A stretch of 64,000 nt of DNA from Bacteroidota bacterium. GTDB taxonomy: Bacteria > Bacteroidota > Bacteroidia > 2-12-FULL-35-15. Below the pieces are notes generated by a model that saw only the letters and a list, made by a program, of their open reading frames with translations, did not search any database and was not told the DNA's origin. The stretch lies in contig JAZJZM010000019.1 of NCBI GenBank assembly GCA_040389865.1, forward strand, positions 17,423-81,422. Reading direction: 5' to 3'. Positions 27,127 through 64,000 of the stretch are shown in pieces. Within the stretch, counting starts at the first letter, position 1. Each line of letters begins with the position of its first letter. Both the position numbers and the translations under genes were made by a program.

Positions 27127-27588
27127 ATGACACTAGTATTAAAAAGAAATGGAAACTTGTTTCCAAGAGTAGTAAATGATTTAATGGAAAGCGGAACTGT
27201 ATTCAGTCCTGATCTTCTTGATTTTAATAATAATTTAATGAACTGGGATTTCTCTTCAAAAGTACCATCAGTAAATATTACGGAGACTGAAAAGGAATAC
27301 AAAATTGAATTGGCTGCTCCGGGGCTAGAAAAAAAAGATTTCAAAATTGAAGTAGAAAATAAAGTTTTAATCATTAGTTCTGAAAAGGAGGAAGAAAAAA
27401 AAGAAGAGGATAAAAATTATAAGAGAAGAGAATTCTCTTACAGTAGCTTTTCTCGTTCATTCCAATTGCCTGAAGATATACTTTCGGATAAAATTGACGC
27501 AAAGTATGAAAATGGAATTTTGAAATTATCAGTTCCTAAGAAAGAGGTATCTGTATCAAAACAAAAAAAAGAAATAAAAATTTCTTAA
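27127..27588 (+). CDS. Hsp20/alpha-crystallin small heat-shock protein
   Basis: 'PSVNITETEKEYKIELAAPGLEKKDFKIEVENKVLIISSEK...FSYSSFSRSFQLPEDI..DKIDAKYENGILKLSVPKKE' is a canonical ACD core. Confidence 0.85.
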   Translation: MTLVLKRNGNLFPRVVNDLMESGTVFSPDLLDFNNNLMNWDFSSKVPSVNITETEKEYKIELAAPGLEKKDFKIEVENKVLIISSEKEEEKKEEDKNYKRREFSYSSFSRSFQLPEDILSDKIDAKYENGILKLSVPKKEVSVSKQKKEIKIS

Positions 27589-37271: not shown

Positions 37272-40200
37272 ATGGCAAAGAGAAAAAAATCGGAGGAATT
37301 AATTATTGCCAACAAGGAACTTATCTTTCAAAATGAAGAGAAGGAAAAGCGGGCAGAAGAGTTAATTATTGCAAATATCGAACTTGCTTTTCAAGATGAA
37401 GAAAAAGAAAAACGTGCTGCGGAGTTAATTTTAGCTAACATAGAGTTAGCTTTTCAGGATGTGGAGAAAGAAAAAAGAGCGGCTGAATTAATTATTGCTA
37501 ACAAGGAACTTGTATTTCAAAACGCAGAGAAAGAAAAACGTGCGGCCGAGTTGATCATTGCTAATAAAGAACTTGTTTTTCAAAATGATGAGAAAGAAAA
37601 ACGGGCTGAGGAATTGATCGTTGCTAATAAAGAACTTGTTTTTCAGAATGATGAAAAAGAAAAACGTGCTGCGGAGTTGATCATTGCAAACAAAGAACTT
37701 GTTTTTCAAAACGATGAGAAAGAAAAACGTGCCGCTGAGCTGATCGTAGCTAACAAAGAACTTGCTTTTCAAAACGAAGAGAAAGAAAAACGTGCAGCCG
37801 AGTTAATTGTTGCTAATAAAGAACTTGTTTTTCAGAATGATGAAAAAGAAAAACGAGCTGCGGAGTTGATCATTGCAAACAAAGAACTTGTTTTTCAAAA
37901 CGATGAGAAAGAAAAACGTGCCGCTGAGCTGATCGTAGCTAACAAAGAACTTGCTTTTCAAAACGAAGAGAAAGAAAAACGTGCAGCCGAGTTAATTGTT
38001 GCTAACAAAGAACTTGCTTTTCAAAATGACGAGAAAGAAAAACGAGCGGCTGAGTTGCTCATCGCTAATAAAGAACTGATCTTTCAAAACGATGAGAAAG
38101 AAAAACGAGCGGCAGAGCTAATTGTAGCGAACAAAGAACTTGCTTTTCAAAATGATGAAAAAGAAAAACGTGCAGCCGAGTTATTCATAGCTAATAAAGA
38201 ACTTGTATTTCAAACCGGGGAAAAAGAAAAACGTGCCGCGGAGTTGGTAATAGCCGACATAGAGCTTGTTTTTCAAAATAAAGAAAAAGAAAAGCGCGAA
38301 ATCGCAAATAAAGAACTTGAAGCATTAAGTTATTCCGCAAAATTAGCATCTCAATATTCTCTTAGCCTGATTGAAGCAAGTCGGGATCCCTTAGTTACTA
38401 TCAGTACAGAAGGCAAGATCACTGATATGAATCAGGCAACTGTAAATATAACAGGCTTGACTCGTGAAAAACTTACGGGTACCGATTTTTTTGATTATTT
38501 CACCGAACCACAAAAGGCACGTGAAGTATATCAGGAAGTATTTGCGAAAGGATCTGTTGCCGATTCTCCGCTTACTCTTCGTCATAAAGCAGGGAAACTT
38601 ACTGATGTATTGTTCAATGGCTCGGTTTATAAAGATGATCAGGGAAATGTACTGGGAGTGGTGATCGTGGCGAGAGATGTTACTGCCCAAAAATTACTTT
38701 CTAAATATTCGTTAAGTCTTATTGAGGCAAGTCTTGATCCATTGGTTACGATAAGTACTGAAGGTAAGATCACGGATATGAATGAGGCCACTGCAAATAT
38801 TACCGGTATGAGCCGTGACCAATTAACGGGTACCGATTTTTTTGATTATTTCACCGAACCACAAAAGGCTCGTGAAGTTTATCTGGACGTGTTTGCGAAA
38901 GGTTCTGTTGCCGATTCTCCACTTACACTTCGTCATAAGGATGGGAAGCTTACGGATGTATTATTCAACGGATCGGTTTATAAAGACGACAGAGGGAATG
39001 TGCTTGGTGCCGTTGTGGTAGCAAGAGATATTACTGAACAAAAAAGAATAGCAACTGAATTGACTGAAGCGAAAATATTTGCCGAGTTGGCAACAGGTAT
39101 TGCGGAGGAAGCAAAAGCTAAAGCCGAAAGTGCCACACGAATAGCCGAAGATGCCGTGAAAGCGAAGCAACAATTTTTGTCAAACATGAGTCACGAAATT
39201 CGTACACCAATGAATGCGATCATTGGATTTACGAAAGTAGTATTAAAAACAGAGCTGTCGGTAAAACAAAAGGAATATTTGTCGGCCATAAAAATGAGTG
39301 GTGATGCATTGATCGTGCTCATTAACGATATACTCGATCTTGCTAAGGTAGATGCAGGAAAAATGTCCTTTGAGAAAACACCTTTCAAAATGAAAGCATC
39401 CATAGCATCCATGCTTCATTTGTTTGAGACAAAAATTCAGGAAAAGAATTTACAGCTTGTTAAGGAATACGACAATAAAATTCCTGATGTGTTAGTTGGC
39501 GATCCGGTTCGTTTACACCAGATCATATTAAATTTGGTGAGTAACGCTGTAAAGTTTACAACTTATGGAAAAATTACTGTAAGTGTTCATTTAGTGAGTG
39601 AGGACGAAGAAAAAGCAACCATTGAATTTGCAGTTATGGATACCGGGATTGGAATAGCGGAAAATAAAATAGAAAGAATCTTCGAAAACTTTCAGCAGGC
39701 AACCAGCGGCACTTCAAGATTATTTGGTGGAACAGGATTAGGACTTGCAATTGTTAAACAATTGGTAGAACCGCAAGGGGGAAGTCTTTTTGTAACAAGT
39801 AAAATTGATGAGGGTTCTACTTTTAGTTTTACGTTAACTTTTCAAAAAACAAAAGCGGAAGCCGAATTGGTAACTGAAGTTGCGGAATTGGATTCCGAAA
39901 TAAAAAATATAAAAGTATTGGTGGTGGAAGATATTGCACTCAATCAATTACTAATGAAAACATTGTTGGATGATTTCGGATTTGAACGCGATATTGCTGC
40001 AAATGGACAAATAGCCATCGAAAAATTGCAAGCTAAATCTTATGATATTATTTTGATGGACTTGCAAATGCCTGTAATGAATGGCTTTGAAGCTACCGAA
40101 TATATTCGTAATAAAATGAATTCTAAGATCCCGATCATCGCCTTAACTGCCGATGTAACTACAGTGGATCTGGCAAAATGCAAAGCGGTTGGCATGAATG

Positions 40201-40676
40201 ATTATATTGCAAAGCCTGTTGATGAAAGAGTATTATATAGTAAAATAGTGGGCCTGGTAAAAAAGCCTGTATTTGTTAATATCCAAAAGGAAAAAGAAAA
40301 CATTGAAACTGAGAAGTTAAAATGTATTGACCTGAAATATTTAAACCACCGCACAAAATCAAATCCAACAATAATGATGGAAATGATTTCACTTTATTTG
40401 GAGCAAACTCCACCTTTGATCAGCACAATGAAACAAAGTTTGTTGGATCAGGATTGGAATTCATTGCGCGCTGCAGTACATAAAATGATTCCCTCCTTTT
40501 CAATAATGGGCATTCATATAGATTTTGAAAATATGGCGAAAAAAGTTCAGGAGTATTCAAGTATCCAGGAACGAACGCATGAGATACATGACTTAGTGAT
40601 ACAGCTTGAAGATGTTTGTTTACAGGCATGTAAAGAGTTGGAAGAAGAATTTAATACGATTAAAAATAAGAAATAA
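37272..40676 (+). CDS. Hybrid sensor histidine kinase: 16 x 21-aa coiled-coil repeats, 2 PAS, HisKA, HATPase_c, REC, HPt
   Basis: Repeats 'ELIIANKELVFQNDEKEKRAA' x16. PAS blocks 'LIEASRDPLVTIS.EGKITDMN.AT.NITG'. H-box 'SHEIRTPMNAIIGF'. G2 box 'GGTGLGLAIVKQLVE'. REC 'ILMDLQMPVMNGFEAT'. HPt 'AVHKMIPSFSIMG'. Confidence 0.9.
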   Translation: MAKRKKSEELIIANKELIFQNEEKEKRAEELIIANIELAFQDEEKEKRAAELILANIELAFQDVEKEKRAAELIIANKELVFQNAEKEKRAAELIIANKELVFQNDEKEKRAEELIVANKELVFQNDEKEKRAAELIIANKELVFQNDEKEKRAAELIVANKELAFQNEEKEKRAAELIVANKELVFQNDEKEKRAAELIIANKELVFQNDEKEKRAAELIVANKELAFQNEEKEKRAAELIVANKELAFQNDEKEKRAAELLIANKELIFQNDEKEKRAAELIVANKELAFQNDEKEKRAAELFIANKELVFQTGEKEKRAAELVIADIELVFQNKEKEKREIANKELEALSYSAKLASQYSLSLIEASRDPLVTISTEGKITDMNQATVNITGLTREKLTGTDFFDYFTEPQKAREVYQEVFAKGSVADSPLTLRHKAGKLTDVLFNGSVYKDDQGNVLGVVIVARDVTAQKLLSKYSLSLIEASLDPLVTISTEGKITDMNEATANITGMSRDQLTGTDFFDYFTEPQKAREVYLDVFAKGSVADSPLTLRHKDGKLTDVLFNGSVYKDDRGNVLGAVVVARDITEQKRIATELTEAKIFAELATGIAEEAKAKAESATRIAEDAVKAKQQFLSNMSHEIRTPMNAIIGFTKVVLKTELSVKQKEYLSAIKMSGDALIVLINDILDLAKVDAGKMSFEKTPFKMKASIASMLHLFETKIQEKNLQLVKEYDNKIPDVLVGDPVRLHQIILNLVSNAVKFTTYGKITVSVHLVSEDEEKATIEFAVMDTGIGIAENKIERIFENFQQATSGTSRLFGGTGLGLAIVKQLVEPQGGSLFVTSKIDEGSTFSFTLTFQKTKAEAELVTEVAELDSEIKNIKVLVVEDIALNQLLMKTLLDDFGFERDIAANGQIAIEKLQAKSYDIILMDLQMPVMNGFEATEYIRNKMNSKIPIIALTADVTTVDLAKCKAVGMNDYIAKPVDERVLYSKIVGLVKKPVFVNIQKEKENIETEKLKCIDLKYLNHRTKSNPTIMMEMISLYLEQTPPLISTMKQSLLDQDWNSLRAAVHKMIPSFSIMGIHIDFENMAKKVQEYSSIQERTHEIHDLVIQLEDVCLQACKELEEEFNTIKNKK
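37296..38304 (+). repeat. 63-bp tandem repeat array (16 units) encoding a 21-aa (three-heptad) coiled-coil repeat
   Basis: Several units are identical over more than 120 bp, e.g. 37650-37780 and 37840-37970. Confidence 0.9.
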
Positions 40677-41433: not shown

Positions 41434-44400
41434 ATGAGATCGATCGCTACCACTAAAAAGAAGAAATCACCAACCAAAAAAAATGTTGAAGATCATTCTT
41501 TTCCTATCGTGGCTATTGGCGCTTCATTAGGTGGTTTAGAAGCGCTTACCTCTTTATTGAAAAATTTACCTTCCAATACCGGAATGGCATATATTTATGT
41601 GCAACACTTAAGCCCTGACCATAAAAGTTTACTAACTTCTATAGTATCCAAGATAACTAAAATGAAAGTTCAGGAGATAGAGGATATGGCGCACATGGCT
41701 CCGGATAATGTGTATGTGATCCCCTATAATAAAATAATTAAAGTTACTGACGGACACATTAAATTGCTTCCCCGTCCAAAAAGCAGTTCTGCCATTTCCA
41801 TTGATGTTCTGTTCTCGTCACTTGCTAAAACGCATAAAAAGAATGTTATTGGTGTGATCCTTTCTGGCAGCGGCACTGATGGTACAAACGGATTAAAAGC
41901 GATCAAAAAAGCGGGAGGAATGACAATTGCACAAGATGATTCCGCGCAAGCAAACAGTATGCCCAACTCGGCTATTGCCTCTAATGTTGTTGATTTTATT
42001 TTATCTCCTAAAGAAATTGCCGGGCATTTAGCAACATTTAGCAAAAATGATTTTTTGAAACCTGACCTTGAAAGTAAACAGAAAGAAGAAGTTAGTGAAA
42101 ATAGTAATCATGATCTGAAAACTATTTTCGGAATTTTATTTAAAAAAACCGGTGTGGACTTCAATCATTATAAGATGTCCACCATTAAAAGGCGATTGAA
42201 CAATAAAATGCTTCAATGCGGAGTAAAAACAGTAAAGGAATATGTAAAATTATTGCTCAAAAAAAACAGTGAGGTTGATCTTCTTTACAAGGATCTGCTT
42301 ATTAACGTAACTAGTTTTTATAGAGATAAGGACGCATTTCAGTATTTAAAAACAACCTTGTTTCCAAAGCTTCTTGAGGGTAAAGCACCGGGAGAAGTAA
42401 TTCGGATATGGATTCCAGCCTGCTCTACCGGTCAGGAAGCTTATTCCATTGCCATGATGCTGACTGAGCTGCAGGAAAATAAAAAAAAGAAAATACCTTT
42501 CCAGATCTTTGGTACCGATCTTAGCGATCAGGCAATTAGTGCTGCACGCAAAGCCGAATATTCGGCAAGTGATCTTATTCCTATTTCAAAGAAATTCAAA
42601 GATCGTTACTTTACTAAAACGGGTGACAACTACCGTATTGTTAAAGAGCTTCGCGAATTGTGTGTATTTGCTCCTCATAATATTCTGCGCGATCCACCTT
42701 TTTCACGTATGGATTTTATCAGTTGTCGCAATCTTCTTATTTATTTTGATTCTTCTGCACAGAAACGGGTTTTTTCAATCCTGCATTTTGCTTTGAATAA
42801 CCAGGGGAGTTTAATGCTTGGTCAAGCAGAAACGGTAGGCACGTCTTCTCAGCTTTTTATCACTACAAATGCTAAATTTAAGATTTACTCTCGTAAAAAG
42901 AGTACCGGAGTGAGGAAGATACTTGAATTAACACCACATTTTCCGCGTACAAATTTTTATAGTAAAAAAATAAACACACCTGTTAAAAGTTTGAGCGTAA
43001 ATTTAATGGGTGTTGAGAATGCTATTGATTCTGCTATTCTCTCAAAGTACATGCCTGCGTGTGCAGTTATAAACAAGGACATGGAAATTCTCCAGTTCAG
43101 AGGACCGATCTCTTTATTTCTCGCACATCCTTCCGGCAAAGCAAGTCTAAATATTTTAAAAATGACAAGACCTGAATTTGCCTTTGAACTTCGTAATGCA
43201 ATTCAAAAAGTAATAAAAACAAAACAGTCGGTGCAAAAAGCGGGCATCGAAATTAAGGTCGAGTCTGTTTTTCGTATGATGTCTTTGGAAGTTTCTCTTC
43301 TTAAGATTGATTGGGACGAGCCATTGCTACTTATTGTTTTTACATTACAGGAACAGGTTGAAAAATTTATTGAAATTGGTAATAGCGGGAAAAGCAATTC
43401 GATCCATGATGCCCAAAGAATAGTAAAGCTGACCGAGGAGTTGAACAATACCCGGATGGAAATAAATTCCATTATCGAATCGCAAGAAGCTACTTTCGAG
43501 GAATTACAAGCAGCCAATGAAGAAATTGTTTCAAGTAATGAAGAGTTTCAAACCTTAAATGAAGAACTTGAAACATCGAAAGAAGAAATTGAGACTACCA
43601 ATGAAGAGCTAATTTCTATCAATCAGGAATTACAAATGCGTAATGATCTTTTAACAGAATCGCATGAGTATTCGGAGGCCATCATTGCTACCATCCATGA
43701 GCCTATGCTTGTGCTAAACAAGGACTTTATTATACAATCCGCCAATAAATCGTATTATAAAAAATTTCTTGTTAAAAAAGAAGAAACGGAAAAGAAATTG
43801 TTTTTTGAATTAGGAAATAAGCAATGGAATATTCCAAAACTTCGTGAGGTGTTAAATGATATTCTTACCAAAAACAAGAGTTTTGAAAATTTTGAAGTGA
43901 CACATGCATTCCCGGGAATAGGCGAAAAAATAATGTTGCTTAATGCACATCTTGTCCTTCAAAAAGAGAACAGAGAACAACTAATTCTGCTTGCCATTGC
44001 TGATGTTTCCGAGTTAAGGAGATTGAGTATAGAGCTCAAAGTGAAAGACGCTAAAGTATTAAAAAACGAAGAGAAAGGGAAATGGGCGGCAGAGTTAGTT
44101 ATTGCCAACAAAGAACTTGCCTTTCAAAATGAGGAGAAAGAAAAACGAGCAGAGGAGTTGATCATTGCCAATAAAGAACTTGTTTTCCAGAACAATGAAA
44201 AAGAAAAACGTGCTGCGGAGTTGGTCATTGCAAACAAAGAACTTGCTTTTCAAAATGATGAAAAAGAAAAACGTGCTGCCGAGTTAGTAATTGCAAACAA
44301 AGAGCTTGCATTTCAAAACGAAGTGAAAGAAAAACGAGCTGCTGAGTTGGTTATTGCAAACAAAGAACTTGCTTTTCAAAATGATGAGAAGGAGAAACGT

Positions 44401-46944
44401 GCAGCCGAGTTAGTTATTGCAAACAAAGAACTTTTATTTCAGGCAGGCGAGAAAGAAAAACGAGCAGCCGAGTTAGCCATTGCAAAAATAGAACTTGACT
44501 TTCAAAATAAAGAGAAAGAAAAACGGGAAATTGTAAATAAAGAACTTGAAGCGTTCAGTAATGCAACTAAATTAGCATCTCAATATTCTCGAAGTTTGAT
44601 CGAAGCAAGTTTAGATCCGCTTGTTACTATCAGTGCAGAAGGAAAGATATTGGATGTAAATAATGCATCGATAAAAGTGACGGGTGTTCCACGTGATAAA
44701 CTCATTGGCACTGATTTCTCCCGTTATTTTACAGAACCATTAAAAGCACAAGAAGGCTATAAGCAGGTTTTTGAAAAAGGATCTGTGTCGGATTATCCTT
44801 TAACAATAAAACATAAAAATGGAAACTTAACGGATGTATTGTACAATGCATCTGTTTATAAAGATGAGAAAGGTAATGTTCTTGGAGTTTTTGCTGCTGC
44901 ACGTGATATAACCGAACAAAAAAGAATTGAAGTTGATCTGGGTAAAAGTTTAAAGGAAATTTCGGATTACAAATATGCACTTGATGAATTTTCTATTGTT
45001 GCCATCACAGACCAGAAGGGAATTATCAAACATGCAAATGACAACTTTTGCAAAGTTTCAAAATTCACGAGAGAGGAATTAATAGGCGCGGATCATCGCA
45101 TTATTAATTCCGGCCATCATCCGAAAGAATTTATCAATGATTTATGGACAACAATTGCCAATGGCGGGATTTGGAGAGGTGAATTAAAAAATGCGGCAAA
45201 GGATGGAACTATTTATTGGGTGAATACTACTATTGTTCCTTTCCTGAATGAACAAGGAAAACCTTACCAGTATGTTGCAGTAAGAACGGACATTACCGAT
45301 CAAAAAAGAATAGAAACAGAATTGATAGAAGCAAAAGTGTTTGCTGAGTTGGCAACCGGTATTGCAGAAGAAGCCCAGAGCAAGGCGGAAAGCGCTACAT
45401 TAATAGCTGAAGATGCGGTGAAAGCGAAACAGCAGTTTTTATCAAACATGAGTCATGAAATCCGCACACCAATGAATGCGATCATTGGATTTACCAAAGT
45501 GGTATTGAAAACAGATCTAACGACAAAACAAAAGGAATATCTTTCAGCGATAAAAATGAGTGGTGATGCATTGATCGTACTTATAAACGATATCCTTGAT
45601 TTGGCAAAGGTAGATGCAGGCAAAATGACATTTGAGAAAACACCTTTCAAAATGGAGTCTTCCATTTCAGCGATGCTCCATTTGTTTGAGACAAAAATTC
45701 AGGAAAAGAATTTGGAATTAGTTAAAAAATACGATAGTAATATTCCTCAAGTGTTAATAGGTGACCCGGTTCGCCTGCATCAGATCATTTTAAATTTGGT
45801 GAGTAATGCAGTGAAATTTACAACAAAAGGGAAAATTACTGTTAGTGTTCTTCTATTAACTGAAGATGAAAATAATGCAAGCCTGGAATTTGCGGTTTCG
45901 GATACCGGAATAGGCATAGATGGAAACAAAATAGAACATATTTTTGAAAATTTTCAGCAAGCTTCAAGCAGCACTTCAAGGTTGTTTGGTGGGACAGGTT
46001 TAGGCTTGGCCATTGTAAAACAATTGGTAGAACCTCAGGGAGGTAGCATTAGGGTGAAAAGTAAAATTGGTGAAGGTTCTACTTTTAGTTTTATATTAAA
46101 TTTTCAAAAAACAAAGGCTGAAGCAGAATTAGAAACAGAAATGCTGGAGTTGGATACTGAGATCAAAAACATAAAAGTATTAGTGGTTGAAGATATTCCA
46201 CTTAATCAACTATTGATGAAAACACTATTGGATGATTTTGGATTTGAACGTGATATCGCTTCAAATGGAAAAATTGCCATCGAAAAGCTGCAAACTAAAT
46301 CGTATGATATTATTTTGATGGATCTGCAGATGCCTGAAATGAATGGATTTGAAGCAACAGAATACATTCGTAATAAAATGAATTCTAAGATCCCTATTAT
46401 GGCTTTAACGGCCGATGTGACCACCGTTGATCTGGAAAAGTGCAGAGCCGTTGGGATGAACGATTACATTGCAAAACCCGTTGATGAAAAATTATTGTAC
46501 AGTAAAATAATTAGTTTAGTAAAAAAGCGAATGCCTTTAAAAACGAAGGAATCTATTGGAAATGAAAATAATTTCAATGAAAAATTAAAATGCACTGACC
46601 TGAAATATTTAATAAAACGCACAAAAAATAGTCCGAAATTAATGATGGAAATGATCTCACTTTATTTGGAACAAACTCCACCTTTAATCAACTCAATGAA
46701 AAAAAGCGTGCAGGATAAAGATTGGGATTCGCTATACGCAGCAGTGCATAAAATGATACCATCCTTTTCAATAATGGGTATGAGTATTGATATTGAAAAT
46801 ACAGCAAAAAGAGTTCAGGAATACGCAGGTACAAAACAACGAACTGAAGAAATTTCAGGCTTGGTTTTACATCTCGAAAAAGTTTGTGCACAAGCATGTA
46901 AAGAATTGGAACTGGACTATACGAATTTTAAAAATGCTGGCTAG
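41434..46944 (+). CDS. CheB methylesterase - CheR methyltransferase fusion to a PAS/hybrid histidine kinase (1,836 aa)
   Basis: CheB motifs 'IVAIGASLGGLEAL' and 'ILSGSGTDGTNGLKAIKKAGGMTIAQD'. CheR SAM-site motif 'IRIWIPACSTGQEAYSIAMML'. An 'EEL(Q/E)(S/T).NEEL' heptad linker. 7 x 21-aa repeats. 3 PAS. H-box 'SHEIRTPMNAIIGF'. HATPase_c, REC, HPt. Confidence 0.9.
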   Translation: MRSIATTKKKKSPTKKNVEDHSFPIVAIGASLGGLEALTSLLKNLPSNTGMAYIYVQHLSPDHKSLLTSIVSKITKMKVQEIEDMAHMAPDNVYVIPYNKIIKVTDGHIKLLPRPKSSSAISIDVLFSSLAKTHKKNVIGVILSGSGTDGTNGLKAIKKAGGMTIAQDDSAQANSMPNSAIASNVVDFILSPKEIAGHLATFSKNDFLKPDLESKQKEEVSENSNHDLKTIFGILFKKTGVDFNHYKMSTIKRRLNNKMLQCGVKTVKEYVKLLLKKNSEVDLLYKDLLINVTSFYRDKDAFQYLKTTLFPKLLEGKAPGEVIRIWIPACSTGQEAYSIAMMLTELQENKKKKIPFQIFGTDLSDQAISAARKAEYSASDLIPISKKFKDRYFTKTGDNYRIVKELRELCVFAPHNILRDPPFSRMDFISCRNLLIYFDSSAQKRVFSILHFALNNQGSLMLGQAETVGTSSQLFITTNAKFKIYSRKKSTGVRKILELTPHFPRTNFYSKKINTPVKSLSVNLMGVENAIDSAILSKYMPACAVINKDMEILQFRGPISLFLAHPSGKASLNILKMTRPEFAFELRNAIQKVIKTKQSVQKAGIEIKVESVFRMMSLEVSLLKIDWDEPLLLIVFTLQEQVEKFIEIGNSGKSNSIHDAQRIVKLTEELNNTRMEINSIIESQEATFEELQAANEEIVSSNEEFQTLNEELETSKEEIETTNEELISINQELQMRNDLLTESHEYSEAIIATIHEPMLVLNKDFIIQSANKSYYKKFLVKKEETEKKLFFELGNKQWNIPKLREVLNDILTKNKSFENFEVTHAFPGIGEKIMLLNAHLVLQKENREQLILLAIADVSELRRLSIELKVKDAKVLKNEEKGKWAAELVIANKELAFQNEEKEKRAEELIIANKELVFQNNEKEKRAAELVIANKELAFQNDEKEKRAAELVIANKELAFQNEVKEKRAAELVIANKELAFQNDEKEKRAAELVIANKELLFQAGEKEKRAAELAIAKIELDFQNKEKEKREIVNKELEAFSNATKLASQYSRSLIEASLDPLVTISAEGKILDVNNASIKVTGVPRDKLIGTDFSRYFTEPLKAQEGYKQVFEKGSVSDYPLTIKHKNGNLTDVLYNASVYKDEKGNVLGVFAAARDITEQKRIEVDLGKSLKEISDYKYALDEFSIVAITDQKGIIKHANDNFCKVSKFTREELIGADHRIINSGHHPKEFINDLWTTIANGGIWRGELKNAAKDGTIYWVNTTIVPFLNEQGKPYQYVAVRTDITDQKRIETELIEAKVFAELATGIAEEAQSKAESATLIAEDAVKAKQQFLSNMSHEIRTPMNAIIGFTKVVLKTDLTTKQKEYLSAIKMSGDALIVLINDILDLAKVDAGKMTFEKTPFKMESSISAMLHLFETKIQEKNLELVKKYDSNIPQVLIGDPVRLHQIILNLVSNAVKFTTKGKITVSVLLLTEDENNASLEFAVSDTGIGIDGNKIEHIFENFQQASSSTSRLFGGTGLGLAIVKQLVEPQGGSIRVKSKIGEGSTFSFILNFQKTKAEAELETEMLELDTEIKNIKVLVVEDIPLNQLLMKTLLDDFGFERDIASNGKIAIEKLQTKSYDIILMDLQMPEMNGFEATEYIRNKMNSKIPIMALTADVTTVDLEKCRAVGMNDYIAKPVDEKLLYSKIISLVKKRMPLKTKESIGNENNFNEKLKCTDLKYLIKRTKNSPKLMMEMISLYLEQTPPLINSMKKSVQDKDWDSLYAAVHKMIPSFSIMGMSIDIENTAKRVQEYAGTKQRTEEISGLVLHLEKVCAQACKELELDYTNFKNAG
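44087..44535 (+). repeat. 63-bp tandem repeat array (7 units); paralogous to 37296-38304
   Basis: 'AELVIANKELAFQNEEKEKRA' units. The nucleotide sequence is near-identical to the repeat units of the first kinase. Confidence 0.9.
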
Positions 46945-55149: not shown

Positions 55150-55590
55150 ATGAGTTATAACTTAAAAAAAATGGAATTAAAAAAAGCTGGTTCGAAATAC
55201 CAATCGGTTATGATTGTTGATGATTGTGAAATTGATAATTATATTAATGAAATTATAATTAAAAAGGCTGGCTTTGCTGAGAATGTTTATAAACATAGCG
55301 GAGCTTTGGGGTCATTAGAGTTTTTAAAAAATATAGCAATGCTTAACTATACTGATCTTGATTTATTACCATCGGTTCTCTTTTTAGACATCAACATGCC
55401 TGTTTTAGATGGTTTTCAATTCCTTGATGAACTTAATAATTTTCCAACACAATTAAATAGAAAAATTAAAATTGTAATACTTTCTTCCTCCGCAAACCCT
55501 TCTGATATAAAAAAAGCAAGTCAATATAAACAAGTTGTCAAATTTCTTCATAAGCCTCTTACGAAAGAGGATTTGTACAACTTAAATTAA
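55150..55590 (+). CDS. Single-domain response regulator (REC)
   Basis: 'SVMIVDDCEIDN', 'FLDINMPVLDGFQFL' and 'VVKFLHKPL'. Confidence 0.8.
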   Translation: MSYNLKKMELKKAGSKYQSVMIVDDCEIDNYINEIIIKKAGFAENVYKHSGALGSLEFLKNIAMLNYTDLDLLPSVLFLDINMPVLDGFQFLDELNNFPTQLNRKIKIVILSSSANPSDIKKASQYKQVVKFLHKPLTKEDLYNLN

Positions 55591-55640
55591 TCTGATTTGT
55601 TCCATTCCTTTAAAGGATTTTAAATATCTATATACTTTAT

Positions 55641-57065
55641 ATGCTTCAAAAAATCATTCATCAATTAAATGAGAAGGATTATTCACTTCTTTCGTTACAA
55701 ATGAAAGAATCAAAAGCGGACAAATTTTTGTCTCTGTTGGTTAATTACCGTAAGGAAAAAACTACGGACAAAGAGTTGATCACAATTCTCAACGTTAATC
55801 CTCCTGCTTTTTATACCTTAAAGTCAAGATTATCAGAGAAAGTTCAATTCTTTTTATTTAAAAACAGCGCAGAAACCCGTATTGAGTTGATTCAAAACGT
55901 ATCAAAAATTGATCAATTGGTATATAATACTCCTCGTGAAACTGCAATTCAGATATTAAAAAAATTAGAAGCAGAGTTAATTAAAAATGACATGCCCAAT
56001 GAGCTGATTGTAGTTTACAAAGCATTAAAAAAGCTCCATCTTCATTCTTCAAAACATTTTGATTATTCACAACTCTATAATAAGCATGTTGCATATAATT
56101 TGGCACAGGATAAAGCCGAAGATTTATTATCCTCTTTTTGCAAAACGCTAAGCGAATACTATTTAAGCAGAAATGAGATACAGCTCACCTCACTAATTTT
56201 GTTAAAGAATGAAATGGAAAACGTGTGCAGGCTCTATAAATCCCACCGTTTAACGATTTATAAAAATATCCTGAACATCCATTTCGCTTTATTTTTATCT
56301 GATGCAGCTAAACTGAATGATGAAACAACCATTGAATCAATGCTGGCTGAATCCATTGAAATACTTAAAAATTTTGAGGATGATAAGGTTTATAAACATT
56401 TAATTCAGGTTATTAATTTTTTATATTTTGAATATTATTATCAATTAAAGTTGCATAAGAATGCACTTGTTTATTATGATAAGATATCATGCAAAACAGA
56501 AGCATTGTTGCTACTCAACCATAGCTGCTTTGCATCTCATTTTTTAATTTCAAAAATCGAATACACTGTTACAGGATCAAAACTTCCTGATTTTCACCTT
56601 AAAAATGATATTCTGGAAGATGATCCAGATCCTGAAAATATTCCAAATTTTATTTTGTTTGTTTACCATAAAACATCTATTGCGTTTTATGAAGGCCGTT
56701 ATTCTGATGCTATTCAAAGCTTGAACAAATTATTAAGAGAAATAAGTTTTAAGAGTATTGCTTTTTCTGAAGTTGAAATAAAATTGTTTCTTGCTATGCT
56801 TTATTTTTTTAACAAAGATGAAGAACACGCAACTGTAATTTTAAGAAATGTTACCAGAAAAATAAATGAAGAAAAAACAAGTGAAAAATATAAGTGCGTC
56901 ACGCCATTTCTGAAATTGTTAAAATCTTTAGGAAAGGGACAGAGTGAAAAGCAAGAAGAAAAAATTATTTTGCTTAATAACTATTATAAGGCCGCTAATG
57001 TTGGTCAATACAGAATCCTCGAGTCTCTTGTGTTAAATGATGAAATGCTGTCAAAAATTAAATAA
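55641..57065 (+). CDS. Hypothetical alpha-helical protein (474 aa)
   Basis: Intact ORF; no recognisable catalytic or NTP-binding motif. Confidence 0.5.
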   Translation: MLQKIIHQLNEKDYSLLSLQMKESKADKFLSLLVNYRKEKTTDKELITILNVNPPAFYTLKSRLSEKVQFFLFKNSAETRIELIQNVSKIDQLVYNTPRETAIQILKKLEAELIKNDMPNELIVVYKALKKLHLHSSKHFDYSQLYNKHVAYNLAQDKAEDLLSSFCKTLSEYYLSRNEIQLTSLILLKNEMENVCRLYKSHRLTIYKNILNIHFALFLSDAAKLNDETTIESMLAESIEILKNFEDDKVYKHLIQVINFLYFEYYYQLKLHKNALVYYDKISCKTEALLLLNHSCFASHFLISKIEYTVTGSKLPDFHLKNDILEDDPDPENIPNFILFVYHKTSIAFYEGRYSDAIQSLNKLLREISFKSIAFSEVEIKLFLAMLYFFNKDEEHATVILRNVTRKINEEKTSEKYKCVTPFLKLLKSLGKGQSEKQEEKIILLNNYYKAANVGQYRILESLVLNDEMLSKIK

Positions 57066-57085
57066 CATCACAAAATTTTTTCCAA

Positions 57086-57862
57086 TTGAAAAGAATAATA
57101 TTTTTCGTCCTTCTGATCCCTCAAATTATTTCTGCCCAAATGAAGCAGAAGGAAAACTATACAGTTTATGTTAATTATCCTGATTATACAATAAAAACAG
57201 ACATATCTTCTAAGGTTAAAAGGATAAACATCCATGAAGAGCTGACTTATTACTGGTATGCTTCCAACAAAATAATGGAAACCACAGGAGGCTATGATGG
57301 TAAAATACTTAACGGCTCCTACACTTCATTCTATGTCAGCGGTAATTTAAGAGAGAAAGGTAAATTTAGAAATGGAATAAAAAATGGAGAATGGATTGCC
57401 TGGTATGAAACAGGGAAAATGAAAGAAATAAATGCATGGAGAAGAGGTATAAAGTCAAGTACTTCTAAAAGCTTTGATATAAATGGTGACCTTATTTCTG
57501 AGGCGAAATATAAGAAAGGGAAATTGAATGGTTCTCAAACAACTTATGGAAACGGAAAGGTCATTACAAAAAAGAAATATAAAAATGGAATAGAGGTTAT
57601 CAAGAAAGAAAAGAACCTTGATAAGGCTCTTGTTTCAATAGGACCCCGTACAAACATGGCTGAAAGATATAAGGTATTTAAAGAAAAAATTGTATCTGTT
57701 TTTAAAAAACACAATGACGAGGGAAATAAACAATCATTAAAAAAAGTAAAAAAAAATACTTCAGCAGACACACCTAAAAAGGTAAAAAAAGAAACACCTT
57801 CGGTTTTTAAAAAGAAGGTCGCTTCTGAAGAAATCAAAAAATCCAAGGAAAAAGCAAAATGA
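57086..57862 (+). CDS. MORN-repeat-variant (YwqK-like) protein with a Lys-rich C-terminal tail
   Basis: Repeats 'GSYTSFYVSGNLREKGKFRNGIKNGEWIAWYETGKMKEINAWRRGIK..G.S..F..NG.L..E..YKKGKLNG'. Signal peptide. Confidence 0.6.
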   Translation: MKRIIFFVLLIPQIISAQMKQKENYTVYVNYPDYTIKTDISSKVKRINIHEELTYYWYASNKIMETTGGYDGKILNGSYTSFYVSGNLREKGKFRNGIKNGEWIAWYETGKMKEINAWRRGIKSSTSKSFDINGDLISEAKYKKGKLNGSQTTYGNGKVITKKKYKNGIEVIKKEKNLDKALVSIGPRTNMAERYKVFKEKIVSVFKKHNDEGNKQSLKKVKKNTSADTPKKVKKETPSVFKKKVASEEIKKSKEKAK

Positions 57863-59124
57863 TAAAAGCGGGAGCGTTATTTTATGCAATTGTTATTTCC
57901 TTGATTATTGCAATTACGAGTAGTGCTCTTATTCTATCTGCATATCTTAGCAGGATCCAATATGAAAATTTTGAGATTAAAAGGCGATTAGACTTGAATG
58001 CTGATTCGGGAATAAAGCTGCTATTGTCAAAGCAATCATTGGTTGAGCTAAATCAGGAAAAAGCAATTGACTTATTTAATAATGGAATTGATAGTGTAAT
58101 TCTGATCAGAAAACAGTGGGGAGCATATGAAATAGCAATTTCAAAGGCGATATTTAAAAATAGTACGTCAGTTCGTACTGCACAGATTGGCTTTTACCCG
58201 GATAGTGATCATTTATATAGTTTACATTTATCTGATAAAGACAAACCTCTTGCACTATGTGGTAATACGCTCATAAAAGGTCCGGCCTTTTTGCCAAAAG
58301 CGGGCGTAAAACGAGCATATATAGAAGGACAGAGCTTTTCCCGAAGTCTATTAATTGACGGAGAGATCAGGAAGAGCGACCGGACACTTCCAAAGTTTAA
58401 TCCAGAATTAATAGAGAATATTCAGGCTGTTTTTTTTAAGAAATCATTGAGTGACAACGACAGTATACTCGATATAAAAAACGAGCTGACAGGAGATTCT
58501 TTGAATAATAGCTTTCAAAATAAGACATTGGTATTTGCAAGTTCAATCCCCATAGTAGTTTCGAACGGGATGTATTCAGGGAATATAGCCGTTATTTCAG
58601 ATAAACAGATTACTGTCACATCAAGCGCTCTGCTGAAAGATGTGTTGTTGTTTGCCCCAAAAATAATAATTGAAAAAAAATTCAGAGGGAATTTACAGGT
58701 ATTTGCTTCTGATTCAATAAGCATTGGTGAGGATGTAACTTTAACATATCCAAGCGTCATAGGGCTTATAAGTGACAATAAACCAAACGGCACTTCCATT
58801 ATTGTTTTAAATAAAAGTGACACTATTTTGGGAAGTGTATTTATAATTAAAAACGAAAATGCTATAATGGGACAGACACGGCTTCTGATCTCGGAAGAAG
58901 TAGTTATTTTCGGACAAGTCTATTCGAATGGATATGTTGACCTCAAAGGAACAATCAACGGCAGTTTAATGTGTGATAATCTAATGCTAACTACAGCTTC
59001 CTCTGTATACGAAAATCATTTATTGAATGCCGTTATCGATGTATCAAAACTGCCTGAGCATTATACAGGTATTAATCTTGTAGAAGAATCTACAGTAAAA
59101 AAAATAGTAAAATGGCTCAATTGA
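57859..59124 (+). CDS. GspK-like minor-pseudopilin candidate (421 aa)
   Basis: The N-terminal hydrophobic helix 'GALFYAIVISLIIAITSSALILSAYL' lacks Glu+5, as in GspK. A large periplasmic domain follows. The ATGA start/stop overlaps the upstream gene, and the 3' end overlaps the next gene by 13 nt. Confidence 0.45.
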   Translation: MIKAGALFYAIVISLIIAITSSALILSAYLSRIQYENFEIKRRLDLNADSGIKLLLSKQSLVELNQEKAIDLFNNGIDSVILIRKQWGAYEIAISKAIFKNSTSVRTAQIGFYPDSDHLYSLHLSDKDKPLALCGNTLIKGPAFLPKAGVKRAYIEGQSFSRSLLIDGEIRKSDRTLPKFNPELIENIQAVFFKKSLSDNDSILDIKNELTGDSLNNSFQNKTLVFASSIPIVVSNGMYSGNIAVISDKQITVTSSALLKDVLLFAPKIIIEKKFRGNLQVFASDSISIGEDVTLTYPSVIGLISDNKPNGTSIIVLNKSDTILGSVFIIKNENAIMGQTRLLISEEVVIFGQVYSNGYVDLKGTINGSLMCDNLMLTTASSVYENHLLNAVIDVSKLPEHYTGINLVEESTVKKIVKWLN

Positions 59125-59462
59125 ACCATAACCTAAAAGCTGCAACACTGATGGAATCCTTAATAGCAATGATTATTATTGTTGTTTGTTTTGGTGTTGC
59201 AACTATGATTTATACGAATGTTTTGGATTCAGACAAGCAACGGCTTCAATTAAAGGCCATTTTGATATTGAACAAGAAAGCAATAGAAACAAAGACTAAA
59301 AAAGAATTTCTTGATTCGGAAGAAGTAGCAGGCGACTGGACTATAAAAAAAATAATCGAACATTACCCCGGGACAGAAAATTTATATCAGCTTACTTTAA
59401 CTGCGTTGAGTAAAAGCGGGAAAACAATCGCGATAAGAAATGAATTAATATTGGCGGAATAA
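59112..59462 (+). CDS. Prepilin-type (type IV pilin / pseudopilin) protein
   Basis: 'LKA|ATLMESLIAMIIIVVCFGV' shows an A/G-(F/A)TL.E motif with Glu at +5 and a hydrophobic helix. Confidence 0.65.
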   Translation: MAQLNHNLKAATLMESLIAMIIIVVCFGVATMIYTNVLDSDKQRLQLKAILILNKKAIETKTKKEFLDSEEVAGDWTIKKIIEHYPGTENLYQLTLTALSKSGKTIAIRNELILAE

Positions 59463-59956
59463 TGAAACAGATTTCAGCCTTTACATTGTTGGAATTGCTC
59501 ATTGGGATGATCCTAAGTAGTATCGTTATTGGTTTCTGTTATACGGGCTATTCAATAATTCACAAGCAATATTTAAATTATAATAATATAAAAAGAGAAA
59601 ATACTAATGCAATTCAGTTAAATTCAATTTTAAATACAGATTTTGTGAATGCCGGATATGTAATGTACGATGGGGATAAATTGATTTTAAATTCTGAAAA
59701 CAAGGATCAGTTGCAATACGAATTTAAAGAAAATTACATTTTAAGGAGCACCAGCGGCTTAATTGATTCTTTTATGTTTTCTCCGGTAAATATTAGTCCG
59801 GAATATTTGAAGGAATCGACACGTTTACCTCTGGCAATTATTAATGAGTTTTCCTTTGATGTTGTTATACTTGGAGAATTAGAACATTTTCATTTTATTA
59901 AAGAATACAGTGCCGAAACAATGATTAGATTACAAATGGAAAATTCGAGCAATTAA
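59462..59956 (+). CDS. Prepilin-type (type IV pilin / pseudopilin) protein
   Basis: 'ISA|FTLLELLIGMILSSIVIGF' is a canonical prepilin N-terminus. The TAATG overlaps the previous gene. Confidence 0.75.
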   Translation: MKQISAFTLLELLIGMILSSIVIGFCYTGYSIIHKQYLNYNNIKRENTNAIQLNSILNTDFVNAGYVMYDGDKLILNSENKDQLQYEFKENYILRSTSGLIDSFMFSPVNISPEYLKESTRLPLAIINEFSFDVVILGELEHFHFIKEYSAETMIRLQMENSSN

Positions 59957-59958
59957 TT

Positions 59959-61107
59959 ATGTTGCAAATAGATCTAAATAATATTGATTTTGTAAAAAAA
60001 GCACCTGCCACACCTCTAAAAGAAAGGAAGGGTACACTTGACTTTCTGAATAAGGATCTTAAACTATTTGAAACAGGCTTTAGTGATAAAAAGAAAGAGC
60101 GTTTTTATTCAGAACTATGTATTCTTTTTTCAGCAGGAGTGGATATTCGTTCGGCTCTGGAATTAATAGAGGAAGAACAGACAAAAGAAAAAGATAAAAT
60201 TTTATTTGCCACTATAAAAGAATCCGTAGTAGCAGGTGCAGGCTTGTCAAGTGCTGTTGAACAAACCGGTATGTTTTCACCATACGAGTATTACAGCATT
60301 CAGATTGGTGAAGAAAGCGGAAGTTTAACAAAAGTGTTGCAGGAGCTTTCCTATTTTTATTCCAAAAAAATTCAACAGAAACGGCAGTTAATAAGTGCTC
60401 TTTCATATCCTGCGGTTGTTTTTTCAGCATCCTTTGGAGCTATATTTTTTATGATGAAATTTGTAGTTCCTATGTTTGCTGATGTTTTCAAGCGTTTTAA
60501 AGGGGAATTACCTTATTTCACGCGATTGATCATTCGGTTATCCGATGCTTTTTCAAATTATTCTTTATACTTTTTTGTAGGAATCACTATTATAGTTGTT
60601 TTTTTATATAATAAAAGGAGAACGGTTTGGTTTAGAAAGCTGAGTGCGGATGTATTATTGCGGACTCCTATTATGAAGGACATGATAAGCAAAATATATC
60701 TTGCCCGCTTTTGTCAATCAATGAATTTATTGATCAGTGCCAAGACTCCCTTAGTAACAGCAATTGATTTGGTAAAAAAAATGGTAGGTTTTTACCCAAT
60801 TGAAGTGTCACTCGAAACAATACAAGAAGATATACTGAAAGGCCAGCCATTACACCTTAGTCTGGCAAAATTTAAAATATATAACAGGCGGATGATCTCC
60901 CTGATAAGAGTTGCGGAAGAAGTGAACCAGCTTGATGTAATGTTTTCTAAATTAGCAAAGCAATACTCTGATGAAGTAGAGCACCAGACAAGTATATTGG
61001 GGAGTTTAATTGAACCTATAATGATCATTTTTCTTGGACTTCTTGTCGCAATTATTCTAGTTGCGATGTATCTGCCTCTTTTCCAGATGAGTTCAACGGT
61101 TGGATAA
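59959..61107 (+). CDS. GspF/PilC-family inner-membrane platform protein
   Basis: Two T2SS_F-type helical repeats ('LCILFSAGVDIRSALELIEE..', 'LLISAKTPLVTAIDLVKK..') and 3 TM segments. Confidence 0.75.
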   Translation: MLQIDLNNIDFVKKAPATPLKERKGTLDFLNKDLKLFETGFSDKKKERFYSELCILFSAGVDIRSALELIEEEQTKEKDKILFATIKESVVAGAGLSSAVEQTGMFSPYEYYSIQIGEESGSLTKVLQELSYFYSKKIQQKRQLISALSYPAVVFSASFGAIFFMMKFVVPMFADVFKRFKGELPYFTRLIIRLSDAFSNYSLYFFVGITIIVVFLYNKRRTVWFRKLSADVLLRTPIMKDMISKIYLARFCQSMNLLISAKTPLVTAIDLVKKMVGFYPIEVSLETIQEDILKGQPLHLSLAKFKIYNRRMISLIRVAEEVNQLDVMFSKLAKQYSDEVEHQTSILGSLIEPIMIIFLGLLVAIILVAMYLPLFQMSSTVG

Positions 61108-61608: not shown

Positions 61609-61616
61609 TATGTTTG
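61609..61616 (+). promoter_or_regulatory. Candidate Bacteroidota -7 promoter box (TAnnTTTG) for the second collagen-like gene
   Basis: 'tatgtttg' lies 38 bp upstream of ATG 61654. TTG trinucleotides occur 10-25 bp further upstream. Confidence 0.3.
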
Positions 61617-61653: not shown

Positions 61654-64000
61654 ATGAACTGCAGTCCAATCAAATATATATATACTCAAATTCCATTCAA
61701 TAGAAGTTTTGTTAAGCAACAAAAGCAAACGCTGCGTTTTTTAACAAATGCAATTTGTTTATTTTTTATTGTTATTTTATTTCAACAAAAAGCAATTGGA
61801 CAAAACCTTGGTATTAATACTACAGGCGCATTACCTGATTCATCGGCTATGCTCGATATCATAAGCCCTAATAAAGGATTGCTTATTCCAAGAATTAGTT
61901 TAACATCTACTACAGACGCTACTACTATTGCAAACCCCGCTATTTCATTGTTAGTGTATAATAACAATGTTTCTATGATCGGTGGAGGCTTAGGTTTTTG
62001 GTATTGGAATGGAACACAATGGGTACAGGCAATTGGCCCTGTGGGGGCTACTGGTTCAACAGGAGCAACGGGAGCTGACGGAATATTTGGAACAACTGGT
62101 GAAACGGGTACTGCTGGCTCAAATGGAAGTACAGGTTCAACAGGTGTAACTGGTGCTGAAGGAATAATAGGAGCAACCGGAGAGACAGGTTCTGCTGGAA
62201 CAAATGGAGCTATAGGTTCAACTGGTGCAACTTCAAATACAGGTGCAACAGGCAGTACAGGTTCAACAGGTTCTACGTCTAATACAGGTTCAACAGGTAG
62301 TACAGGCTCTACAGGTTCAACATCTAACACAGGTTCAACTGGAGCAACAGGAAGTAGTTCAACAGGTGCGACTGGTTCAACTGGTTTCACATCAAACACA
62401 GGTTCAACAGGAATTACCGGCTCAACCGGTTCCACTTCAAATACAGGAGCAACAGGAAGCACTGGCTCAACTGGTTCAACCGGGAGGACTGGCTCAACCG
62501 GTTCAACAGCTAACACAGGGTCTACGGGAGAAACTGGGACAACAGGTGCGACCGGCTCAACCGGTTCTACCTCAAATACAGGGTCAACAGGAAGCACAGG
62601 ATCAACTGGTTCAACATCTAATACTGGTTCAACAGGAAGCACAGGTTCAACATCAAATACCGGATCGACTGGGGCTACAGGTTCAACCGGTTCTACGTCC
62701 AATACGGGGGCAACAGGAAGCACAGGATCAACCGGTTCCACTTCAAATACAGGAACAACAGGAAGTACCGGTTCGACTGGTTCAACAGCTAACACTGGTT
62801 CAACAGGAGCAACGAGTTCAACAGGAAAGACAGGATCAACGGGCTCAACCGGTTCTACTTCAAATACAGGAACCACTGGCTCTACTGGTTCTACATCTAA
62901 TACCGGTTCCACGGGCGCGACAGGTTCAACAGGGACTACGTCAAATACGGGTTCAACAGGAAGTACAGGTTCAACTGGCTCGACATCAAATACAGGAGCA
63001 ACTGGGACAACAGGTGCGACCGGCTTAACCGGTTCAACAGCCAACACCGGTTCAACCGGTTCTACTTCAAATACAGGTGCAACAGGAAGTACAGGTTCAA
63101 CAGCTAACACAGGTTCAACGGGATCAACTGGTTCCACTTCAAATACAGGATCAACTGGAAGTACCGGCTCAACAGGAGCAACTGGAGCAACCGGTTCTAC
63201 TGGTGCTACTTCAAATACAGGTTCGACCGGAAGAACCGGTTCAACAGCTAGCACGGGTTCCACTGGCGCAACAGGTTCTACAGGGACAACAGGAAGTACC
63301 GGTTCAACTGGTTCAACAGCTAACACAGGGTATACAGGAGCAACTGGGACAACAGGTGCGACCGGTTCTACCTCAAATACAGGAACAACAGGAAGTACCG
63401 GCTCGACTGGTTCAACAGCTAACACAGGTTCTACCGGTGCGACCGGCTCAACAGGTTCAACAGCTAACACCGGTTCATCGGGATCAACGGGTTCCACTTC
63501 AAATACGGGATCAACAGGAAGTACTGGCTCTACCGGTTCTACAGGAGCAACTGGTTCTACTGGTGCTACTGGAACTACTTCAAATACAGGTGCAACAGGA
63601 AGTACCGGCTCGACTGGTTCAACAGCTAACACTGGTTCAACTGGAGCAACGAGTTCTACAGGTTCAACAGGAAGGACAGGGTCAACTGGTTCAACGGGTT
63701 CTACTTCAAATACAGGAACCACTGGAAATACCGGTTCCACAGGCTCAACCGGTTCTACATCTAATACAGGTTCAACAGGTGCGACCTCTAATACCGGTTC
63801 AACGGGAGCAACTGGAAGTAGTTCTACTGGTGCTACCGGTTCAACTGGCTCGACATCAAATACAGGTGCAACAGGAAGCACAGGCTCAACGGGTTCGACC
63901 TCTAATACCGGTTCAACGGGAGCAACTGGAAGTAGTTCTACTGGTGCTACCGGTTCAACTGGCTCGACATCAAATACAGGTGCAACAGGAAGCACAGGCT
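61654..64000 (+). CDS. Second giant collagen-like fibre protein, 5' part (paralog of 1629-13307); it runs off the window
   Basis: ATG 61654 follows a TAA at 61636-38. The N-terminal module '[68 protein letters not shown]' is about 60% identical to the first gene's module. It is followed by G-X-T triplets with regular 'STSNTG'/'STANTG' Gly-to-Ser interruptions. The six-frame track omitted it because there is no stop inside the window. Confidence 0.85.

Follow-up and report, generated by a model that had tools for sequence, protein, structure and literature searches.

The DNA analysed here is a stretch of 64,000 nucleotides (the window) from a genome assembly of a Bacteroidota bacterium (GCA_040389865.1, contig JAZJZM010000019.1, forward-strand positions 17,423 to 81,422). 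Two genes for collagen-like proteins lie on one strand of the window, 48,346 bp apart. They are here called gene 1 and gene 2, and gene 2 runs off the end of the window. Here we describe the structural features of gene 2, whose predicted product joins a signal peptide and a beta-rich module to a collagen-like stalk in which glycine is replaced, in frame, about once in five triplets. A preliminary description, made from the letters of the DNA, had placed the two genes about 48 kb apart in the same orientation, as was found. The coordinates are collected in Table 1.

Table 1. Features of gene 2 and its paralog in the window. L002 is a contig of a related metagenome-assembled genome (MAG); L003 is a contig with the positional ortholog of gene 2.
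Feature	Position	Strand	Remarks
Gene 1, paralog, 3892 aa	1629..13307	+	Same module as gene 2; Asp/Arg-rich G-S-T stalks, globular domains, tail-fibre-like Gly-rich C-terminus
Candidate -7 promoter box, TATGTTTG	61609..61616	+	From a motif search; 38 nt upstream of the ATG
Gene 2, partial open reading frame, predicted secreted collagen-like fibre protein	61654..64000	+	3' end beyond the window; ortholog support in L003 and L002
Predicted signal-peptide region, aa 1-49	61654..61800	+	Long basic n-region, hydrophobic core, QQKAIG, then Gln50
78-aa beta-rich module, aa 50-127	61801..62034	+	PF26696 by annotation of homologs; common to gene 1
21 uninterrupted, varied G-X-Y triplets (ending GAI GST)	62035..62223	+	Largely kept in L002
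Quasi-periodic interrupted array, [G-x-T]2-3-G-S-T-[S/A]-N-T	62224..64000	+	12-/15-residue units; 37 Gly-less triplets, 3 GSSST units
Recent internal tandem duplication	63766..64000	+	114-nt unit, 2.1 copies, 97% identical

The open reading frame (ORF) of gene 2 starts with the ATG at 61654 and stays open through base 64000, which gives 782 codons without a stop. Upstream, a T2SSF-family gene ends at 61107, and an AT-rich spacer of 546 nt lies between the two. The sigma-A promoters of Bacteroidetes have a -7 box of the form TAnnTTTG. The octamer TATGTTTG in the spacer fits this consensus and is a putative promoter element. The spacer is 86% identical at the locus of the L003 ortholog, and the G+C content is 47% in gene 2 versus 36.6% for the window. 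No public contig that extends gene 2 past base 64000 was found among the GTDB species representatives and JGI metagenomes scanned, and the sole public contig with the upstream T2SSF protein ends 633 nt past the T2SSF gene. The gene had been called giant, for which there is no support: only 782 codons are visible, and the proteins of the family are typically 500-1100 aa long, with at least about 1350 aa in the L002 ortholog. An ORF of 737 aa on the minus strand (61782-63995) was rejected as a gene. It is a shadow of the repeat, with low complexity of the P-V-E type and no homologous module, and its counterpart in L002 is likewise of P-V-E-type low complexity.

The start of the protein resembles that of an exported protein, and Gln50 is likely to be the mature N-terminus, as judged from the aligned residues. 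The hydrophobic core and the A/G-Q junction have the same position across an alignment with 28 homologs, the basic n-region is kept in the L002 and L003 orthologs, and the AlphaFold2 (AF2) model has a helix at aa 18-49. At about 49-60 aa, the signal-peptide region is of unusual length in the window (61654-61800), in L002 (138-284) and L003 (10001-10147), and in the proteins P0170, P0181 and P0205. Its length brings to mind the extended signal peptides found in very large secreted proteins.

The module that follows is shared with gene 1 (59/90 residues identical, 66%, E 2e-38). This bears out the description of gene 2 as a second collagen-like gene with the same N-terminal module, and makes the two genes paralogs. 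These are the only two copies of the module within the window. The mature module is 91-94% identical to those of L003 and L002. In the AF2 model the blocks over aa 81-120 have a mean predicted local distance difference test score (pLDDT) of 90-94. A sequence search of the PDB with the module gave nothing better than E 0.34, and a Foldseek search of the PDB with its AF2 model gave nothing better than E 2 and hence no structural relative.

Two close relatives show what may lie beyond the window. L003 is the positional ortholog, in which the upstream response regulator, pilin-like genes and T2SSF gene are collinear with those of the window at 85-95% protein identity. Its module is followed by about 260 aa of uninterrupted G-X-Y and then by repeats of the tail-fibre type (NANLTGGVTSVGNAATVVT; ATTAFV), and the gene leaves its contig at 1352 aa. 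Identity between gene 2 and the L002 ortholog is 84% for the first 129 residues and 94% for the mature module. In L002 a stalk interrupted by the same GSTSNT motif is followed by an assembly gap of 100 N and a 645-aa head that matches tail-fibre PHROGs. The parts distal to the module are thus all swapped between L002, L003 and the window.

The stalk of gene 2 begins at aa 128 (nt 62035). Parsed by Gly-to-Gly distance, it consists of 179 Gly-started units, namely 139 canonical G-X-Y triplets, 37 units of six residues and 3 units of five residues (GSSST). The six-residue units read G-x-T-[S/A]-[N/S]-T, with Ser in the place of Gly in 28 of them and Ala in 9 (GSTSNT 20, GSTANT 8, GATSNT 3, GATSST 2, GTTSNT 2, GFTSNT 1, GSTAST 1). 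The GSSST units shift the Gly register. Neither these units nor the Ala variants were part of the preliminary description. Its estimate that every fifth or so triplet lacks Gly agrees with the measured density of one per about 5.4 triplet slots. Among the triplets that it named as typical, GAT is indeed common (29), but GET (3) and GAD (1) are rare, most of them among the 21 uninterrupted triplets at the start.

The interrupted array is at least 590 aa long. Tandem Repeats Finder reports periods of 36, 45, 81, 126 and 207 nt in it, of which 36 and 45 nt correspond to the 12- and 15-residue units. Runs between interruptions are 1-7 triplets long, and 67% of them are of 2-3 triplets. Six or more contiguous triplets are found in the first 21 triplets and in four later runs of 6-7; over most of the array the runs are of 1-5. 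Ser and Thr make up 56% of the stalk residues. The Pfam Collagen model (PF01391) scores 224.7 bits against a cut-off of 27.2 (E 7e-68), although the model is of low complexity and the score mostly mirrors period and composition.

Near the end of the window a 105-nt exact repeat occurs at 63782 and 63896. Because of such internal repeats (the 105-nt repeat and the 114-nt unit) short-read assemblies break there. Breaks or N-gaps fall exactly in the repeat gene in L002 (1726-1825) and at the 3' end of the contig L001. As a result, most entries for this family in public protein databases are truncated fragments.

The interruptions are not randomly placed. Adjacent interruptions are never seen in the stalk of gene 2, and the non-adjacency and the spacing of 2-3 triplets were each reached by 0 of 20,000 shuffles. 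Thr occupies the Y position in 92% of the canonical triplets, and the Gly period is kept. The codons behind these residues are diverse, with 37 different 9-mers for 107 GST triplets and 13 different 18-mers for the 20 GSTSNT units. With such varied codons behind identical triplets, the periodicity is held at the level of the protein and does not come from recent amplification of the DNA.

Codon usage also separates the interruptions from simple mutation. In gene 2 the Ser that stands in place of Gly has a TCN codon (TCA, TCT or TCC) in 26/28 cases, and the nine Ala residues have GCT or GCC. Asn follows the Gly-less residue in 34/37 cases, and 34 of the 37 Asn residues of the stalk are within the motif. 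In L002 all 21 Gly-less Ser codons are TCN. The seven sporadic Gly-less sites of gene 1 have AGY in six cases and GCT in one. TCN cannot be reached from GGN in one step, and the AGY and GCT codons of gene 1 are the pattern of one-step mutation. Because of the TCN/GCN codons, the dedicated Asn and the recurrence in L002, the [Ser/Ala]-Asn-Thr interruption is a propagated and conserved element of the sequence and not decay. The interruptions had been described as Gly-to-Ser. Ser does replace Gly in most of them, but a simple loss of Gly to Ser does not describe a distinct [S/A]-N-T motif that is coded by TCN or GCN.

The same evidence bears on the possibility that gene 2 is a copy of gene 1 that has become a pseudogene and is losing its Gly codons by decay. 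Decay would account for the many non-Gly triplets and the three register-shifting units, and the 3' end that could betray it is beyond the window. We nevertheless consider it very improbable. The frame is open for all of the visible codons, the replacements are TCN/GCN with a dedicated Asn and not the one-step AGY codons of gene 1, and a promoter-like box lies upstream. L002 keeps the motif, and the locus shows synteny with L003. The mature module is highly similar in both, and the 129 codons of signal peptide and module differ from each of them by 21-22 synonymous and 21-22 nonsynonymous codon differences.

The stalks of the two paralogs differ in several respects. Gene 1 has 598 canonical triplets and 7 in-register Gly-less triplets (versus 37 in gene 2), with no GSSST units, so that interrupted units relative to canonical triplets amount to 1.2% in gene 1 and 29% in gene 2. 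The X position holds Ser (73%), Asp (8%) and Arg (6%) in gene 1 and Ser (58%) and Ala (23%) in gene 2; Thr at Y is at 95% in gene 1. There are 48 Asp and 36 Arg in the stalks of gene 1, compared to 9 charged residues in the 654 aa of gene 2, and Pro is found 3 times in 1836 aa and once in 654 aa, respectively. The earlier claim of a different triplet chemistry is thus well founded, in interruption frequency and in charge content. From the collagen peptide literature it is plausible that the interruptions make the gene 2 fibre more flexible than the gene 1 fibre.

Gene 1 has further features of its own. Its stalk is broken by repeated globular domains, as single units of about 85 aa or as paired units of that size (window 2781-3638; aa 385-465, 490-667, 771-943, 1461-1633, 1854-1933 and 2013-2192). 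They carry the motifs 'GLAYT.G.R.RV' and 'W.IN..G'; the domain type is also present in L033, and its sole match is a PHROG of unknown function. The listed TTG start of gene 1 (1629) overlaps TAGTTTTG (1621-1631), which fits TAnnTTTG, so either the start or a promoter at this place is uncertain. A protein of the IMG/VR contig L035 (2989-4290) ends in a Gly-rich sequence (GGGGGG...LVIKYN) like that of the Gly_rich_2 C-terminus of gene 1 (…YVIIYW, 12750-13307), a likeness in sequence that supports phage ancestry for the distal end of gene 1.

The module places gene 2 in a very large family. Homologs of the gene 2 module (matches to E 4e-38) are all annotated PF26696, and a phmmer search of 1.84 billion representatives returned 14,830 proteins at E<=1e-3, of which 3004 reach E<=1e-10. 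The module directly follows the signal peptide in many relatives; in others it is internal or in tandem, with 8 copies in P0149. By these arrangements it is a reusable fibre module, and the label 'anchor' would be speculation. Relatives pair it with Pro-rich collagen, with beta-helical 'GNVGIGTTxP' repeats, with Peptidase_S74 chaperones and with sorting domains of the type IX secretion system (T9SS), and NCBI labels several of them 'tail fiber domain-containing protein'. Tail-fibre PHROGs match the non-collagen parts of gene 1, the repeats of L003 and the family member L034, in addition to the L002 head. L034 also carries TIGR04183; no C-terminal sorting domain (TIGR04183 or CHU_C) was matched in gene 1 or in the L002 head.

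A phage origin of the module was considered and rejected, since it has no PHROG match and IMG/VR is without the module except for a 14-aa motif. Nor does gene 2 qualify as a virus-encoded tail fibre, with housekeeping genes of the chromosome on its flanks and a module that has no counterpart among the PHROGs.

Dense interruption is rare in this and other families. In a set of 122 collagen-like matches that each have 30 triplets or more, the median count of in-register Gly-less triplets is 0. The ratio of Gly-less to canonical triplets is 0.27 in gene 2 (37/139), and only P0133, at 0.24, comes near. None of 148 module-family representatives has more than one in-register Gly-less triplet. Gene 2 is an unusual variant, with a dense, regular and nearly Pro-free interrupted stalk, of a very common kind of protein. 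The sequence G-S-[A/T]-[S/A]-N-T-G-A-T-G was also seen at low density in the unrelated microbial collagen-like proteins P0056, P0073, P0106, P0121 and P0134, often after P-G. From this recurrence the motif may be a general, so far unrecognised structural element.

We favour, as moderately probable, the reading that gene 2 encodes a surface fibre with an adhesive role and a loosened, jointed and presumably trimeric collagen-like stalk. The product would be exported by the Sec pathway to the cell surface and would belong with the 'tail fiber domain-containing protein' family. The mature chain would begin with the PF26696 module and pass directly into the stalk, which is presumed to be homotrimeric. 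After the 21 canonical triplets would come units of 12-15 residues, each closing in a Gly-less [Ser/Ala]-Asn-Thr. The stalk would most likely be a triple helix with local loosenings at regular distances, because the triplet frame is kept and the substitutes for Gly are only the two smallest residues. Ala and Ser are the least destabilising replacements of Gly. A single Gly-to-Ser replacement in a recombinant bacterial collagen left a trypsin-resistant helix and lowered its Tm by 1-2 C (PMC5009287). In other members of the family a classical, Pro-rich G-X-Y region follows the same module. Next to the nearly uninterrupted, Asp/Arg-bearing stalk of gene 1, that of gene 2 would be a softer, jointed tether. 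The C-terminus beyond the window is most likely a binding head like those of phage tail fibres, as in the orthologs. We infer an adhesin or recognition fibre whose stalk would set its reach and flexibility.

Several observations weigh against a triple helix. The known bacterial collagens are stabilised by imino acids and by Lys-Glu/Asp salt bridges (PMC11923368), and the stalk has the single Pro and few charged residues given above. The working definition of a triple-helical domain asks for at least six contiguous triplets (PMC11923368), and most runs in gene 2 are of 2-3. Without glycosylation of its Thr residues the peptide (Gly-Pro-Thr)10 stays a random coil (PMC11923368), and no glycosyltransferase gene was found within the window. 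In a single-chain AF2 model the stalk has a pLDDT of 27.5 and no structure, which is expected for an obligate trimer and equally for disorder.

These same points lend themselves to another explanation, by which the stalk is a disordered, possibly O-glycosylated and mucin-like spacer that holds the head off the cell, and the triplet period is a relic of collagen ancestry. The lack of charge pairs, the near absence of Pro, the high content of Ser and Thr, the many runs below six triplets, the AF2 model without secondary structure and the unfolded state of GPT peptides without glycosylation would all be natural in such a spacer. We regard it as unlikely, though not far-fetched. A spacer would not need the constraints that are seen: the Gly period and Thr at Y are strict despite heavy synonymous divergence, Gly is replaced in frame by Ser or Ala only, and orthologs keep both the module and the 21 canonical triplets next to it.

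A non-collagen bundle of the polyproline-II (PPII) or polyglycine-II (PGII) kind was also weighed, into which the 12-15-residue units would fold with S-N-T-G as the turns. Such bundles are known from the snow-flea antifreeze protein and from the PGII sandwiches of phage gp38. The quasi-regular units and the turn-like sequence of Asn followed by Thr-Gly would suit this architecture. We find it improbable because the runs range from 1 to 7 triplets, unlike those of a regular bundle, AF2 gives no monomer fold, and relatives have classical Pro-rich collagen after the same module.

The preliminary description had further proposed that the two paralogs act as direct repeats that could delete or invert the 48 kb between them. 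Their common orientation, the common module and the G-x-T repeats in both genes gave the idea some appeal. It is hardly credible in view of the DNA, in which the two genes are 66-68% identical and the longest exact word in common is 23 nt. Direct repeats moreover give deletions and cannot invert the DNA between them. The interval is ordinary chromosomal housekeeping DNA, with genes for FKBP, DUF3352, an OmpA-family protein, MlaEFD, Hsp20, a baeRF-family protein, Usp, BON, two giant hybrid kinases, an RNA methyltransferase (Methyltransf_10), a PLD-domain protein, DUF349 and a pilin/T2SSF cluster. With a 105-nt exact repeat inside gene 2, a change of length within the gene is far likelier.

Some neighbouring genes deserve mention. 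Directly upstream of gene 2 (55150-61107, plus strand) are a response regulator, TPR-like and MORN-like genes, an unknown gene, two genes with N-methyl motifs that are pilin-like (ComGE/ComGF-like) and the T2SSF gene; the cluster is collinear in L003. This cluster may have a functional tie to the fibre, in its export or assembly. A plus-strand gene (21743-22288) that stands alone between the two collagen-like genes encodes a small protein of 182 aa with a Legionella Lcl C-terminal domain (PF07603, E 1e-11). A fusion of 1836 aa (41434-46944, plus strand) combines CheB methylesterase, CheR methyltransferase, PAS domains, a histidine kinase and a receiver, and it adjoins a PAS hybrid kinase of 1134 aa (37272-40676, plus strand). 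A release-factor-like protein of baeRF family 3 (27737-28819, plus strand, E 4.5e-30) comes just after the Hsp20 gene (27127-27588). The window opens with the C-terminal part of a PKD-domain protein (30-761, plus strand), which carries a type IX secretion signal of the CHU_C kind; the organism thus has T9SS cargo.

Likenesses to known systems help to place the fibre. The proteins with PF26696 and a tail-fibre domain (P0029, P0170, P0205, L034) share with gene 2 the signal peptide, the module directly after it (at most 78% identity) and a fibre region, and their distal part is variable and resembles tail fibres. They differ in that all 148 representatives have at most one in-register Gly-less triplet, versus 37 in gene 2. 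The mosaic adhesive trimer (MAT) proteins of Bdellovibrio bacteriovorus have a signal peptide, a conserved beta-rich N-domain, a trimeric fibre and swappable phage-like tips, with S74 and non-S74 subgroups (PMC10769870). Their design is that of the PF26696 relatives; the distal part of gene 2 is beyond the window. The mosaicism among the L002, L003 and window orthologs mirrors the 'tip swapping' of MAT (PMC10769870). However, the MAT stalk is a beta-prism or beta-helix and that of gene 2 is collagen-like, and the phylum differs. Membership through the N-domain was tried and rejected, as NF053851 (Bdello_MAT_N) matched neither module of the window even at E<=10. The likeness to MAT is a matter of design and does not extend to membership.

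Other comparisons concern the stalk. The Thr-rich proteins of the BclA type in Bacillus have G-x-T with Thr at Y, as in gene 2, and glycosylation of Thr is the proposed stabiliser. Collagen-like proteins of Bacillus and Clostridioides are among the best stalk matches of gene 2. The Bacillus and Bacteroidota stalk matches that were inspected contain Pro and are uninterrupted, unlike gene 2. The terminal domains and the cell envelope of BclA-type proteins are also unlike those of gene 2. Streptococcal Scl1 and Scl2 and Legionella Lcl are surface adhesins with a collagen-like stalk, and NCBIfam models for them match the gene 2 repeat, but the scores are below the curated cut-offs (NF038329, 214.9 vs 325; NF038330, 185.4 vs 400; NF046116 for Lcl, 189.5 vs 500). 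Scl1, Scl2 and Lcl depend on Pro and charge pairs. Anchoring by LPXTG is Gram-positive, whereas the host of gene 2 is a Gram-negative member of the Bacteroidota.

In non-fibrillar animal collagens and in osteogenesis imperfecta, Gly is replaced with the frame preserved (G5G) or the frame is broken in the manner of G4G, as in gene 2. The loosening and kinks proposed for animal collagens are the basis on which the gene 2 stalk is suggested to be flexible. Unlike in animals, the replacement in gene 2 is a repeated and apparently selected motif that recurs about once per five triplets in what is presumed to be a homotrimer, and it has no stabilising flanks.

The other densely interrupted stalk, that of P0133 (GCA_947085255.1, 607 aa), has G-S-T-S-A-T units with 13 Gly-less to 54 canonical triplets. 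Its motif is S-A-T and not S-N-T, its genome has T9SS cargo neighbours, and its N-domain is unlike that of gene 2, with a weak match to Bdello_MAT_N (34 bits vs a cut-off of 60). A trimeric head of the C1q/BclA type at the C-terminus of P0133, which would have spoken for trimers among interrupted stalks, was considered and dropped; there was no Pfam match, and the PDB gave a weak match to a chain that its depositors had named FliK.

What gene 2 signifies depends on the state of its stalk. A merely disordered spacer would make it an ordinary member of a very large family. If the triple helix is real, the stalk would show that a natural homotrimer of collagen-like sequence can bear the replacement of Gly at every fifth triplet. 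Its stability without hydroxyproline or salt bridges, and with almost no proline, would test the rules of collagen stability, and it could serve as a template for designed collagens with programmed flexibility. It is a tentative thought, more doubtful than not, that [Ser/Ala]-Asn-Thr is a selected element that defines a new class of 'jointed', Pro-free and charge-free collagen-like tethers, or else a non-collagen PPII architecture, and that it is a general building block. The genome encodes two fibres with the same module and very different stalks, and sister species differ in both stalks and heads at the gene 2 locus. This variation points to rapid diversification of the surface recognition fibres of Bacteroidota, comparable to that of the MAT fibres of Bdellovibrio.

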